The notes: generated by a model not told the origin, from the letters alone. 64,000 nucleotides of DNA from Patescibacteria group bacterium (GCA_041649155.1 JBAZNP010000001.1:430564-494563), one strand, 5' to 3'; positions 32,478 to 53,535 are shown, counted from the first letter of the stretch. Translations and numbers: made by a program.

Positions 32478-33656
32478 ATGAATATATATTTAGATAATGC
32501 GGCGACTACAAATATTGATCCGAAAGTAGTTGAGGCGATGAATAAATCGTACCAATTTTTTGGTAATCCATCTTCTTTGCATACTTTTGGACAGGAGGCC
32601 AGAAAATTGGTTGACCAGTCTCGAGACACAGTGGCGGAATTTTTGAATTGCAAACCAACTGAAGTGATTTTTACATCAGGTGGAAGCGAATCGGATAATT
32701 TGGCGATCAGAGGAATAGTTAACAGTATACAGATAACAGATAACAGTATAAAACCACATGTTATTACTAGTGCGATTGAGCATCATGCGGTTTTGCATAC
32801 GGTACAGGATCTGGAAAAGGCCGGTAAAATTGAGGCAACTTATGTCAAACCGAATGAAAAAGGCATTATTCAGGTATCTGACGTTGAAGCGGCAATAAAG
32901 CCAAACACTGTTTTGGTTTCAATAATGTATGTGAATAATGAAGTTGGAACGGTTCAGCCAATTCGGGAAATCGGTAAAATTATTGAAAAAGAAAATAAAG
33001 ACAGAAAAGTACGAATATATTTTCACACTGACGCGGTGCAGGCTGCGGAATTTTTCAATATGGATACAAAATATTTGCACGTTGATCTTCTGACTCTTAC
33101 AGCTCACAAATTTCATGGTCCGAAAGGGATTGGGGTTTTATTTATAAAAAAAGGAACGCCGATTGAGCCGCAAATTATTGGTGGCGACCATGAGTTTAGA
33201 TTTAGAGCAGGAACGGAAAATGTAAGTTCAATAGTCGGTCTTAAGACCGTTATTGAGCTGGTAGAAGGTAGAAGGAAGAAGGTGGAGGGAATTAAGAAAT
33301 TAAGGGACAAATTGGAGGATTGGATATTAAAAAATATACTGGAAACGTATTTAAATGGTGATAAGGAGAATCGAAGCCCGGTCATTTCCAATATTAGTTT
33401 TAAGAATGCTGAGGGCGAGGCGATAATTTTAAATTTGGATTTTATGGGAATTGCTGTGTCGTCCGGTTCAGCCTGTACAGCCAGAAGTCTTGATCCGAGT
33501 CATGTTTTGATGGCGATGAACACGCCGCGTGAGTTGTCACATGGTGCAATTAGATTTTCTCTAAGTCGGGAGACAACAGAAGAAGAAATTGACAGGGTTA
33601 TTGAAGTGCTTCCTGGTATTATAAAAAAATTAAGGGAGATGAGCCCTTTTGGATAA
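32478..33656 (+). CDS. Cysteine desulfurase (NifS/IscS class V aminotransferase)
   Basis: FTSGGSESDN, PLP-lysine region LLTLTAHKFHGPKGIG and active-site SSGSACT. An in-frame ACAGATAACAG-type insertion lies at about 32720-32752 (NSIQITDNSIKPH). Confidence 0.85.
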   Translation: MNIYLDNAATTNIDPKVVEAMNKSYQFFGNPSSLHTFGQEARKLVDQSRDTVAEFLNCKPTEVIFTSGGSESDNLAIRGIVNSIQITDNSIKPHVITSAIEHHAVLHTVQDLEKAGKIEATYVKPNEKGIIQVSDVEAAIKPNTVLVSIMYVNNEVGTVQPIREIGKIIEKENKDRKVRIYFHTDAVQAAEFFNMDTKYLHVDLLTLTAHKFHGPKGIGVLFIKKGTPIEPQIIGGDHEFRFRAGTENVSSIVGLKTVIELVEGRRKKVEGIKKLRDKLEDWILKNILETYLNGDKENRSPVISNISFKNAEGEAIILNLDFMGIAVSSGSACTARSLDPSHVLMAMNTPRELSHGAIRFSLSRETTEEEIDRVIEVLPGIIKKLREMSPFG

Positions 33657-33795
33657 ATATTGTTATATTGTTGCATTGTTATATTGTTAACCGCCCCTAA
33701 CCCCTCGCTCCCACCCCCTCTGACTCCCCCTCGGGCAGGGGGAGAACCGCTTGAAAAGGAGGGGAACAATAAAGCAATATAGCAATATAATTTTA
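33655..33795. repeat. MITE-like element with ATATTGTTAT / CAATATAGCAAT inverted ends and a CTCCCCCT-CGGGC-AGGGGGAG hairpin core
   Basis: The ends are reverse complements. Same family as 44581-44670, 48876-48915/49280-49320, 52496-52615 and 53440-53535. Confidence 0.65.
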
Positions 33796-33806
33796 CGGAG
33801 TAAATT

Positions 33807-34196
33807 ATGGAACAATATACAGAAAAAGTAATGGATCACTTTGCTAACCCTCGTAACGTGGGTGAGATTAAGGATGCTGACGGTGTCGGGGAAGTTGGTA
33901 ATCTTAAGTGTGGTGACGTTATGAAAATTTATATTAAAGTGGAGAGTAGAGCTGGTGAAGAGTACATTGAAGATATAAAATTTAAGACTTTAGGCTGTGC
34001 AGCTGCCATTGCGTCTTCTTCGATGACTACCGAGCTGGCAAGAGGAAAAAAATTGGATGAAGCTCTGAAGATTTCCAAAGACGATATTAATGAAGCATTG
34101 GGCAAACTTCCCGCACCAAAATACCATTGCTCAATATTGGCGGCAGAAGGAATTAAAAAAGCAATCGAAGATTATAAATCAAAAAAGAAAGGTTAA
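33807..34196 (+). CDS. Fe-S cluster assembly scaffold protein (NifU/IscU/SufU N-terminal domain type)
   Basis: MDHFANPRNVG...NLKCGDVM...LGCAAAIASSS...YHCS, with three conserved Cys. Confidence 0.75.
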   Translation: MEQYTEKVMDHFANPRNVGEIKDADGVGEVGNLKCGDVMKIYIKVESRAGEEYIEDIKFKTLGCAAAIASSSMTTELARGKKLDEALKISKDDINEALGKLPAPKYHCSILAAEGIKKAIEDYKSKKKG

Positions 34197-34198
34197 TA

Positions 34199-34999
34199 GT
34201 GGATTTTTTTGACGGAAAAAAGATTAGAGATGAGATAATTAGTGATTTAAAAACAAAAGTTGCTAAGATGGATCGCAAACCTGGCCTAGCTGTTTTTTTG
34301 GTTGGGAATGATGTTGTTTGTGAGAGATATGTTGCTCTAAAGAAGCGTATAGCCGAAAGTATTGGTATATTTGTTAGAGTTTACAAATATGATGAAAACT
34401 GCGAGCAGAAAGAAATTATAAATAAGATAACTGAACTAAATTCGGACAATACAATCGACGGGATTATGGTTCAAATTCCCATTCCTAAGAATTTTGACAA
34501 ATTTGAGATCATTAACGCAATTAGTCCGGATAAAGATGTTGACGGTCTGCGTTTCTGCGGTGGTTTTCATTCTCATTTCACTCCTCCGGTAGTGCTAGCT
34601 ATTTTGAAAGCGGTTGAATTGGCCAATAAAAATATAGAAGAATGTGAGGTTTTAGTGATAGGCAGAGGCTTTTTGGTCGGCTGGCCTGTTGCTCAGTGTA
34701 TGGAAGAGGCAGTTAAAGGTCTTGTTATTGCTGACAGAAATACAAAAAATTTAAGCTCTATTACTAAAACTGCAGATGTCATTATTTCCGCTACTGGTGA
34801 AGCTGGTCTTATTAAACCTGATATGGTTAAGGACGGCGCGATTTTAATTGATGCCGGCACTGCTGAAGTTGGTGGAGAACTCTTGGGAGACATTGATACT
34901 GAATGTTATGGAAAAGCCTGTTACTACACGCCTGTTCCAGGTGGCATTGGTCCTGTGACTGTGGCGATGCTTTTGAAGAACTTAGTATTGACAAAATAA
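34199..34999 (+). CDS. folD: Bifunctional methylenetetrahydrofolate dehydrogenase / methenyl-THF cyclohydrolase
   Basis: IDG KKIRDEI, GIMVQIPIP, DVDGL, VIGRG..VG.P and PVPGGIGPVTVAML. Confidence 0.8.
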   Translation: MDFFDGKKIRDEIISDLKTKVAKMDRKPGLAVFLVGNDVVCERYVALKKRIAESIGIFVRVYKYDENCEQKEIINKITELNSDNTIDGIMVQIPIPKNFDKFEIINAISPDKDVDGLRFCGGFHSHFTPPVVLAILKAVELANKNIEECEVLVIGRGFLVGWPVAQCMEEAVKGLVIADRNTKNLSSITKTADVIISATGEAGLIKPDMVKDGAILIDAGTAEVGGELLGDIDTECYGKACYYTPVPGGIGPVTVAMLLKNLVLTK

Positions 35000-35037
35000 C
35001 TAAAATATTGTAAGCTGCTTAAGCTTTCGGAGGAATT

Positions 35038-52495: not shown

Positions 52496-52615
52496 AATAT
52501 TAATTGCTATATTGCTATATTGCTATATTGCTATATTGCTATATTGTCATATTGCTACTGCCCAGGCTCCTGTAGCCTTAACAATTTAACAATAAAACAA
52601 TGTAACAATAATAAT
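52496..52615. repeat. (CTATATTG)x5 tandem array plus inverted AACAATTTAACAATAAAACAATGTAACAAT. A MITE-like unit of the ATATTG/CAATAT family.
   Basis: Seen directly between atpH and atpF. Confidence 0.6.
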
Positions 52616-52618
52616 GAT

Positions 52619-53101
52619 TTATAACTCTTTAATTGCTTGTTCTGTTAATTTCGCTTTGCTATTGGCATCTATTTCTTCGCCAACGATCTTATCCAATGCC
52701 ATTACTACAACGTTCGATAACTCTTTTTTAGCTTCTTTTAAGGCTCTTTCCTTCGCCATGCCTGCTTCTTCGTCGGCATTTTTTAATATTTTATCTGCCT
52801 GATCGTTTGCTTTTTTAACTATGGATGCGGCTTTTTCACTCGCTTCCTTTTTGGCTTCTGAAATAATTTTATCAGCCTCTTTAAAGGCATCATCCTTTAT
52901 CTTGTCAGCATTTTCTTTTGCCTGACCCAAACATTTCTCTGCATTTTCCGAATCCTTTAATCCTTTACAGATTTTTTCCTCCCTGTCGCTCAACATTTTT
53001 GTGATTGGTTTATACAAGAATTTGGAGAGTACCAAAAAAAGTACAACAAAATTTACTATTTGCGCGATCAATAATTTTAAATCTATTCCTAAAGCTTCCA
53101 T
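52619..53101 (-). CDS. atpF: Fo ATP synthase subunit b
   Basis: N-terminal TM (LIAQIVNFVVLFLVL) followed by a long charged helix. Operon position. Confidence 0.65.
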   Translation of the reverse strand: MEALGIDLKLLIAQIVNFVVLFLVLSKFLYKPITKMLSDREEKICKGLKDSENAEKCLGQAKENADKIKDDAFKEADKIISEAKKEASEKAASIVKKANDQADKILKNADEEAGMAKERALKEAKKELSNVVVMALDKIVGEEIDANSKAKLTEQAIKEL

Positions 53102-53188
53102 GATAATTTTCTCCGAAAATTAGTAGTCAGTACTCAGTAGTCAGTTTTCAGCTAAGTGCTGATTTACTGACAACTGATTTACTAACAA

Positions 53189-53419
53189 CTATTTAACAAA
53201 CTTGATGATCAAAGCGACAACAAGAGCGTAGATTGCAACTGCTTCGGCGAAAGCGATTGCCAAGATCATTGGTCCCTGCACCTTTCCTGCTGCTTCAGGG
53301 TTTCGGCCGATAGCCTCGACACCTTTTGATCCGATCATACCAATAGCGATTGCCGGTGCAATTGCGCCAAGCGCGATTGCGGCAGCTGTTGCTAAACTTG
53401 ACATTGTTTCTGCATCCAT
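53189..53419 (-). CDS. atpE: Fo ATP synthase subunit c
   Basis: 76-aa hairpin proteolipid with [13 protein letters not shown] and conserved E in AFAEAVAIY. Confidence 0.8.
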
Positions 53420-53439
53420 AGGAACTCCTTCATTAATTT

Positions 53440-53535
53440 ATATTGTTTTATTGTTACATTGCTCTATTGCTAACCTCGCCTACCCTCTCCTTAGAAAGGA
53501 GAGGAGCAATATAACAATTTAGCAATACAACAATT
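53440..53535. repeat. Complete MITE-like unit: ATATTGTTTTATTGTTACATTGCTCTATTGCT...CCCTCTCCTT-AGAAA-GGAGAGG...AATATAACAATTTAGCAATACAACAAT
   Basis: Near-identical to the copy embedded in miaA (44581-44670). The same hairpin core occurs in rsmA at 11097-11135. Confidence 0.65.

Follow-up and report, generated by a model that had tools for sequence, protein, structure and literature searches.

The DNA described here is a stretch of 64,000 nt (the window) from a Patescibacteria group bacterium; the 64 kb inspected belong to a metagenomic contig that measures 603 kb or more. It carries ATP synthase genes, nifS, iscU (nifU) and miaA, and among these genes lie five copies of a palindromic repeat, family A, defined by a left arm of ATTGYTNN octamers and a right arm of NNARCAAT octamers. 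Four of the copies are hairpins without an open reading frame (ORF), and the fifth, between atpG and atpD, is a cassette whose arms enclose a gene of the PF05635 family (S23p, '23S rRNA intervening sequence protein'). The host belongs to the candidate phyla radiation (CPR, Patescibacteria) and is close to Candidatus Berkelbacteria: its AtpG is 86% identical to that of the metagenome-assembled genome (MAG) L004 and 58-61% identical to those of Berkelbacteria MAGs. GC content in the window is 36-47%, and at the gathering threshold Rfam recognizes only five tRNAs and one c-di-GMP-I riboswitch in it, with no rRNA. Comparison loci, numbered with an L, include an independent sister assembly (L001), the closest relative (L004), two further relatives (L005, L006), two outgroups (L007, L008) and a distant relative (L023).

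Family A in the window

Each of the five sites has a 5′ arm of three to seven tandem ATTGYTNN octamers and a 3′ arm of the complementary units (Table 1). With at most one mismatch allowed, the two-unit pattern matches the window 35 times, against 3.6 ± 2.0 in dinucleotide shuffles, and 31 of the 35 matches fall inside the five sites. The inverted AT-rich arms that an earlier note on this DNA had described at these five places are therefore real. Tandem Repeats Finder reports period-8 arrays starting at 33657, 33767, 44648, 48882, 49281, 52503, 52578, 53438 and 53507; in the repeat finder the left arms cluster together (D3), as do the right arms (D18), with inverted pairing of the two (I9, I14, I15, I18-I20). 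The right arm of the nifS-iscU copy and the 3′ arm of the cassette have a 22-nt string in common, AACAATAAAGCAATATAGCAAT. The four ORF-less copies are predicted to form long RNA hairpins (fold z −3.9 to −6.2).

Table 1. Coordinates of the family-A copies and of other repeat elements in the window
Feature	Position	Strand	Arm span	Parts	Remarks
ORF-less hairpin, nifS-iscU (nifU) spacer	33655-33795	+	33657-33790	left arm 33657-33690 (4 units); core ~33691-33763; right arm 33764-33790 (3 units)	predicted fold −47.3 kcal/mol, z −3.98
Hairpin in frame inside miaA	44566-44673	+	44569-44673	left arm 44569-44602; core module ~44603-44640; right arm 44644-44673	108 nt = 36 codons; fold z −5.70
Full-length cassette, atpG-atpD	48877-49316	−	48877-48915 and 49281-49316		PF05635, E 2.4e-19
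ORF-less hairpin, atpF-atpH spacer	52496-52615	−	52503-52611	arm of 7 units 52503-52558; loop hairpin 52559-52577; arm of 4 units 52578-52611	period 8, 6.9 copies, 91% matches
ORF-less hairpin, atpB-atpE spacer	53437-53538	−	53440-53536	arm 53440-53473; core module 53474-53505; arm 53505-53536	fold z −6.23
Solo core module (ACCTCACCCCAGCCCTCTCCTTCAGAAGGAGAGGGGG) in rsmA	11097-11137	+			in frame, without octamer arms
Other periodic-arm family in spacer	21327-21450	+		(TCAGTTAA)x7.6, which is (TTAACTGA)n on the other strand; core; ACAACTTA-type right arm
Relatives of the 21327 element	2148-2245, 18084-18159, 41997-42098, 46788-46890, 52031-52099, 53102-53197, 62245-62300

The full-length copy consists of an arm, a 126-aa four-helix-bundle gene (ORF 48902-49282) and a second arm. 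Its 5′ arm (49281-49316) reads ATTGTTAT ATTGTTAA ATTGATAT ATTGCT and abuts the ATG, leaving no Shine-Dalgarno sequence (no GGAG), whereas the neighboring atp genes have GGAG-type ribosome-binding sites. At the other end, the first unit of the 3′ arm (48877-48915) codes for the C-terminal LTI-stop of the protein. In the minimum free energy fold of the 465-nt region the arms pair as a 16-bp stem that closes the 381-nt ORF (z −2.96). The earlier note had listed repeats on both sides of the four-helix-bundle gene; they do flank it, and the pairing makes them the two arms of a single cassette, one element and not two.

The four spacer elements each sit after a stop codon and before the next Shine-Dalgarno sequence. 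The copy between atpB and atpE ends about 12 nt ahead of the Shine-Dalgarno sequence of atpE. The atpF-atpH copy has a small loop with a weak AGGCT/AGCCT pairing and no larger core, while the core of the nifS-iscU copy is longer, doubly nested and GC-rich, and contains CTCCCCCT-CGGGC-AGGGGGAG. Reading of the sequence led to the rejection of intrinsic terminators, as the elements lie within operons and have no U-run on the transcribed strand. The gene for the ATP synthase delta subunit (52100-52495) encodes 131 aa that match positions 47-172 of the 172-position OSCP profile. Truncation of this gene, atpH, by the adjoining element was considered and rejected, since the 131-aa ORF starts normally directly after the element.

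The remaining copy lies within a coding region. As the earlier note had stated, it lies inside miaA, where it is read through in frame, and the ORF stays open over 339 aa. In the product, 277 residues are spanned by the 243 positions of the Pfam IPPT profile, and the alignment places about 32 extra residues at a loop where the distant relative L023 has no insert. An identical protein, insert included, is encoded in three other samples.

A conserved hairpin core had also been ascribed to the family, together with near-identity over about 90 nt between the miaA and atpB-atpE copies, taken as a sign of recent mobility. These claims do not hold. The window has three instances of CCTCTCCTT-N-AAGGAGAGG, two of them within family-A arms (44615 and 53484, in just those two copies) and one, at 11110-11130, in frame in rsmA without ATTGYT arms; the loops of the other family-A copies differ. 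The rsmA module has the same ACCTCACCCCA leader as the two nested copies, and the RsmA of locus L230 is without the corresponding residues. The solo copy shows that the GC-rich core is an independent nested element and not a trait of family A. Unrelated GC-rich mini-hairpins are in fact nested in the loop of three of the four ORF-less copies. The alignment of the miaA and atpB-atpE copies gives 83 of 108 identical positions (77%) with three indels, against 55-65% for the remaining pairs, and much of this similarity is due to the nested module common to both, which the supposed recent mobility likewise reflects.

PF05635 cassettes in other genomes

The protein encoded by the cassette has 4347 homologs, the best 120 of which are 71-100% identical to it; the named sources of these 120 are Patescibacteria, Falkowbacteria, Andersenbacteria, Pacebacteria, Parcubacteria and Minisyncoccia. 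In metagenomes, at least 120 stretches match a pattern of four ATTGYTNN units. Three of them (L141, L143, L156) have the arm-PF05635-arm layout, and the close homologs on contigs that were fetched by protein are all flanked by ATTGYTNN and NNARCAAT arms (L205, L215, L216, L220/L236, L230). Together with the window these loci make up subfamily 1, with L236 encoding a protein identical to that of L220, and the 5′ ATTGYTNN and 3′ NNARCAAT arms are found at ten of the ten subfamily-1 genes examined, whose proteins are 54-78% identical. Among 80 related genome loci, no three-unit ATTGYTNN arm was found. The units of L220, ACTGTTAA/ATGGTTAA, are variants of ATTGYTNN. Some loci hold a complete gene-less hairpin adjoining the cassette or two hairpins, namely L220, L224 and L236, upstream of the PF05635 gene, and L139, L179 and L190.

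The inverted hairpin layout was seen in 20 of 120 metagenome loci and in none of 119 viral loci matching the same pattern, and its polarity is fixed, running 5′-ATTGYT...ARCAAT-3′ in 20 loci and the reverse in two. These counts bear on the simplest alternative, that the copies reflect chance similarity among AT-rich low-complexity sequences or an assembly artifact. The arms are indeed AT-rich simple repeats, and the four-unit pattern also matches microsatellites in AT-rich viral contigs. Yet the window counts lie far above those of shuffles, identical sequence recurs in independent assemblies from other samples, and none of the viral controls has the inverted layout, so this explanation is refuted. 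In the viral contigs the arm pattern matches plain microsatellites only, the protein has one weak viral relative, and no phage vehicle was found there. Plasmids yielded a single homolog, distant and cyanobacterial, which has no arms.

The cassettes are placed within operons and co-directional with them, between atpG and atpD, between ABC ATPase and permease genes, in a PGK/FBA/PfkB operon, and at PrgI/TraC and G5/RsmA junctions. At the gathering threshold Rfam has no match in four related cassette loci, which indicates that the cassettes are not in rRNA.

The connection between arms and gene extends beyond subfamily 1. An iterated profile search over about 2 Mb of fetched DNA yielded 21 PF05635 genes, which were set against 1439 control ORFs. 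For inverted complementarity between the two flanks, 19 of the 21 genes exceed the 95th percentile of the controls, the two exceptions being a cyanobacterial plasmid gene and a truncated ORF, and the flanks have a 7-8 nt periodicity far above that of the controls (Mann-Whitney p ~1e-11). The unit differs by subfamily. In subfamily 1 it is always ATTGYTNN, with period 8; in a second group, at 32-53% protein identity, the units have period 7; and in a third, at 32-50% identity, they have period 8, for instance TAAGCnnn and TAAGTCAT. The closest pairs of the second and third groups have unit cores in common: AAAGTy links L009:7430 to L143:3704, and AAGCT links L004 to L009:9436. The PF05635 gene of L004 lies between ABC ATPase and permease genes and is flanked by an octamer family, TGCTTAnn, that also forms gene-less arrays elsewhere in L004. 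Thus in both the window and L004 the gene-less hairpins match the unit of the local cassette. The descriptive link between periodic arms and PF05635 genes, which holds across many CPR lineages, is well supported; a limited search of the literature found no report of it.

The closest known counterparts are the intervening sequences (IVSs) of rRNA genes, which have been called selfish elements and for which, to our knowledge, neither a mode of action nor a mode of spread has been established. The IVSs of Leptospira, Coxiella burnetii and CPR bacteria resemble family A in several respects. They carry a PF05635 four-helix-bundle ORF without a good Shine-Dalgarno sequence, their terminal inverted repeats pair into a long stem that encloses the element, forms that have no ORF and consist of a hairpin only exist as well (Salmonella-type IVSs), and they are sporadic and better conserved than host genes, which suggests horizontal spread (PMC4990558, PMC11270868). 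A published example combines an S23p ORF, a poor Shine-Dalgarno sequence, a 28-bp terminal stem and cleavage by RNase III, and rRNA IVSs are regarded as horizontally transferred selfish elements (PMC4990558). PF05635 ORFs have also been found in rRNA insertions of CPR bacteria (PMC11270868). Family A differs in that it occupies the spacers of mRNA operons and one coding region instead of a helix of 23S (or 16S) rRNA, and in that its stems consist of tandem 8-nt units in which a 6-nt core is conserved. RNase III, by which IVSs of the rRNA type are excised from the transcript without religation, may act on it as well. Since its anatomy matches that of the published IVSs in another setting, family A is read here as the stem of an IVS-like palindromic cassette together with gene-less derivatives of it, an interpretation that is probable though far from settled.

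Turnover, slippage and other periodic arrays

Family A and its counterparts come and go at orthologous sites, in comparisons that are all between species. The miaA site is empty in L023, holds family A in the window and carries other elements in three relatives, of the AATTTCTAA type in L004 and L005 and of the GAATTAAG type in L006. The atp spacers of the outgroups L007 and L008 are short and free of repeats. Between the genes for G5 and RsmA lies a cassette in L230 and 22 nt in the window; the cassette proteins of the two are 77% identical, as against 52% for the flanking G5 and 56% for RsmA. At the atpG-atpD junction, the window, L005 and L006 have PF05635 genes that do not all belong to one subfamily, and in L004, L007 and L008 the spacer is short, so the site appears to have been reused. 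The genes of L005 (~1119-1590) and L006 (11049-11436), 3′ of atpG, belong to another subfamily than that of the window and have different period-7 arms.

Between cassettes, differences are saturated at synonymous sites (pS 0.76-0.91) and far fewer at nonsynonymous sites (pN 0.15-0.29), so the cassette ORF is a functional protein gene under purifying selection. The ATTGYT core is kept over the same divergence, which implies that the arm sequence is either constrained or regenerated.

At the shortest distance the arrays change by slippage. The window and L001 have 21,020 nt in common without a substitution, and their two differences are each an indel of one unit in a periodic array. The first affects a ATTGCTAT unit in the atpF-atpH element, of which L001 has one fewer, and the second a CAGTTGT heptamer in mnmA, of which the window has one more. 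As a result mnmA (ORF 35926-37086, array 36363-36393) is intact in the window, with 386 aa, whereas in L001 its reading frame is shifted and gene calling splits it in two (178 and 186 aa). The heptamer array looks like a contingency-like locus switched on and off by slippage, or else like an assembly error.

These observations can be held against the earlier interpretation of the elements as miniature inverted-repeat transposable elements (MITEs), that is, deletion derivatives of a DNA transposon (IS630/Tc1 or IS200/IS605) mobilized in trans by a transposase encoded elsewhere. Family A is small, AT-rich and multi-copy and has inverted termini, a longer gene-bearing relative has the same ends, and orthologous sites are filled in some species and empty in outgroups. 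TAA stands at both ends of three copies and could be a TA or TAA duplication, and the portion of the contig inspected leaves room for a transposase outside it. Against this, the longest string common to the two flanks of an element averages 3.38 nt over 26 hairpin elements, and 3.45 ± 0.17 when flanks are cross-paired; target-site duplication gives no signal in this comparison, in which element boundaries are fuzzy and a very short TA or TAA duplication could escape. The TAA ends fall on stop codons and on the AT-rich spacers of the units. The termini are tandem arrays that vary in unit number by slippage, not fixed terminal inverted repeats; the longer element with ATTGYTNN termini encodes PF05635 in all ten related cassettes (the window and nine others) and not a transposase; and sister species hold different families at the same site. 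Of the window ORFs that were annotated or scanned with Pfam, none was found to carry a transposase domain, in line with the earlier note. An origin as classical MITEs is accordingly improbable. The label is right in spirit, in that family A is a dispersed, small, non-autonomous palindromic family that is gained and lost and has a longer gene-bearing relative, and it fails on the duplication and on the transposase. The insertion polymorphism expected under it exists as filled and empty sites between species, while within the population only changes in unit number were seen.

A related possibility is that the copies are repetitive extragenic palindromic (REP) sequences or REP doublets forming hairpins (REPINs), spread by a REP-associated tyrosine transposase (RAYT) of the IS200/IS605 type that recognizes the hairpin. 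Like family A, such elements are intergenic, palindromic, multi-copy families specific to a genome and evolving within it (PMC3116915). REPINs, however, are two inverted short REPs and not tandem octamer arrays, scanning of the window ORFs turned up neither a Y1 transposase nor a RAYT domain, the gene linked to family A is PF05635, and copies occur in frame within genes. This origin is very unlikely.

Family A is one of at least seven families with periodic arms in the window, whose units include CAGTTGT/TTAACTGA, GAATCAA and AATTTCT besides ATTGYTNN. Arrays of period 7 or 8 number 45, with about four expected (1-7 in 20 shuffles); roughly 25 lie in spacers and 20 in ORFs. Those of the other families fill most short spacers, often as inverted pairs around a core, with examples at 2148-2245, 7650-7698, 9037-9104, 13784-13851, 18084-18159, 21327-21450, 36745-36995, 38156-38252, 38638-38685, 41997-42098, 46788-46890, 54281-54390 and 57669-57750. 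Genes with in-frame arrays include mnmA (four heptamer arrays, with the ORF intact), recG, miaA, nifS, a comEA-like gene, dnaX and a Mg-chelatase-like gene. Further families of GC-rich mini-hairpins, among them GTCATTCCCGCGAAGGCGGGAATC-type and GTCATCCTGAAnnnnTTCAGGATC-type, lie in spacers and genes at 11287-11320, 13853-13886, 17108-17222, 44910-44975, 46273-46306, 46825-46845, 50295-50395 and 56860-56960. Relatives carry them too, and the miaA of L004 has one in frame (peptide ...VISTPQLCLRVEKSSNKRSLDFARDDK...).

In-frame insertion has a counterpart in the Rickettsia palindromic elements (RPEs), which Ogata et al. reportedly described in 2000. As with RPEs, palindromes are inserted in frame at permissive sites and translated as an extra peptide, here by family A in miaA and by sister families and core modules in mnmA, recG, rsmA and other genes. 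Sequence and host are unrelated, RPEs have neither tandem-unit arms nor a PF05635 gene, and the copies described here are mostly intergenic.

The spacer arrays also recall the STRR repeats of cyanobacteria, said to have been described by Mazel et al. in 1990. Among the sister families, which have period 7, the (TTAACTGA)n family corresponds to the motif TAACTGA, with 7.6 copies at 21335-21395 and a further site at 22151-22165. TAACTGA occurs 25 times in the window against nine expected, and L004 has 4.7 copies upstream of its atpB. It is known as an unexplained intergenic heptamer repeat of Beggiatoaceae, Cyanobacteria and Bacteroidetes, arranged directly and just once inverted (MacGregor 2015, PMC4679880). 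The TAACTGA and STRR repeats resemble the arrays described here in being tandem units of 7-8 nt in spacers just 5′ of start codons, with an abundance specific to the genome. In contrast, the arrays here occur as inverted pairs that form hairpins, they are linked with a gene cassette, and family A has period 8. A link to PF05635 is not reported for the earlier repeats, and the paper on TAACTGA nowhere uses the terms 'S23', 'four helix' or 'intervening sequence' (PMC4679880).

Such repeats suggest another reading, in which the arrays are cis-acting sequences of the host, born in place by slippage and selection, that serve as sites or structures for a post-transcriptional regulator, and the PF05635 gene is just one more gene in a spacer. 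Translational regulation by repeats of this kind has been suggested (MacGregor 2015, PMC4679880). Nearly every short spacer in the window genome and in L004-L006 has some 7-8 nt array, the number of arrays far exceeds that in shuffles, units are gained and lost by slippage, sister species have other units in the same spacer, and the (TTAACTGA)n repeat itself is present. This reading is harder to reconcile with the recurrence of gene-plus-arm cassettes, at 71-81% protein identity, in operons that are unrelated and belong to distant CPR lineages (identity of housekeeping proteins 40-56%), with the tie between arms and protein subfamily, and with elements inside coding regions, a poor fit to a translational operator. 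The cis-acting reading is unlikely for these reasons.

Some neighboring features stand apart from the repeats. The c-di-GMP-I riboswitch (40347-40441; 44.4 bits in Rfam, where the gathering threshold is 35) is found upstream of a gene without a Pfam family, ORF 40493-41140. On the minus strand, ORF 2-1966, which runs off the window, joins an HU-type DNA-binding domain (PF00216, residues 1-91) to MshEN and T2SSE (type II/IV secretion ATPase), an unusual architecture. ORF 22382-30619 encodes 2745 aa with Laminin_G_3, DUF2341, fibronectin type III and purple-acid-phosphatase-N domains, and is probably a giant surface protein.

A proposed mechanism and its significance

The full form of family A comprises about four ATTGYTNN octamers, the 126-aa PF05635 gene and about four to five NNARCAAT octamers, and the four short copies keep the arms around a small loop. 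The copy in miaA sits in a permissive loop of the protein and is translated through. On the polycistronic RNA the arms may pair as A-U-rich stems of 25-40 bp. By analogy with rRNA IVSs, RNase III could cut these stems, or they could insulate neighboring cistrons in some other way. New copies may arise by some process of insertion or gene conversion that favors spacers and existing palindromes.

The cassette protein may itself take part. A profile search of PDB finds the relatives 2RLD and 2GSC, each with five chains per entry; a single-sequence search of PDB with the cassette protein gave no match. Structures of PF05635 proteins have been solved, and we know of no function assigned to them. 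Speculatively, a pentameric cassette protein could recognize the octamers at about one unit per subunit, and the gene-less hairpins would then be dependent satellites of the gene-bearing copy. As a mechanistic analogy only, the trp RNA-binding attenuation protein (TRAP) is a ring-shaped oligomer that recognizes tandem RNA triplet repeats. A cyclic homo-oligomer could in the same way read one unit per subunit, and the five chains of the PF05635 relatives compare with arms of typically four to five units; TRAP is unrelated in fold and in the spacing of its repeats, and binding of the units by PF05635 is hypothetical. In its general form the proposal is that periodic arms are recognition arrays for the pentameric protein, with a 7-8 nt unit proper to each subfamily, and that protein and repeat form a module that colonizes spacers, coding loops and rRNA and leaves gene-less hairpins as satellites dependent on it in trans. 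This wider proposal is offered tentatively and is doubtful as a whole.

Several points weigh against these interpretations. The sample of subfamily-1 cassettes is biased, since roughly half of them came from searches for the arm pattern or for homologs of the window protein, and the cyanobacterial plasmid gene, a distant homolog, has no arms. Co-inheritance of gene and arms could produce the correlation between subfamily and unit without any binding, and the seven or more unit families of the window stand beside a single PF05635 gene. Complementarity at the NN positions is only modestly higher for partner arms of one element (0.547) than for arms of different elements (0.436 ± 0.035), so that stem perfection is not strongly maintained and strong covariation support is not claimed. 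RNase III cleavage, and even co-transcription, are inferred.

The PF05635 genes of CPR bacteria form discrete cassettes with subfamily-specific periodic arms, set in ordinary operons and accompanied by gene-less copies of the arms. This organization makes the function of the family experimentally approachable, through binding of the octamers, cleavage of the stems by RNase III and stability of the flanking cistrons. Array slippage can split genes in annotation, as in mnmA, and many 'low-complexity' spacers and odd peptide inserts of CPR genomes would be derived from elements of this kind. If the protein does recognize its arms, this would be the first function for PF05635 (S23p) proteins, and it could account for the heptamer and octamer spacer repeats, such as TAACTGA and STRR, found in other phyla.

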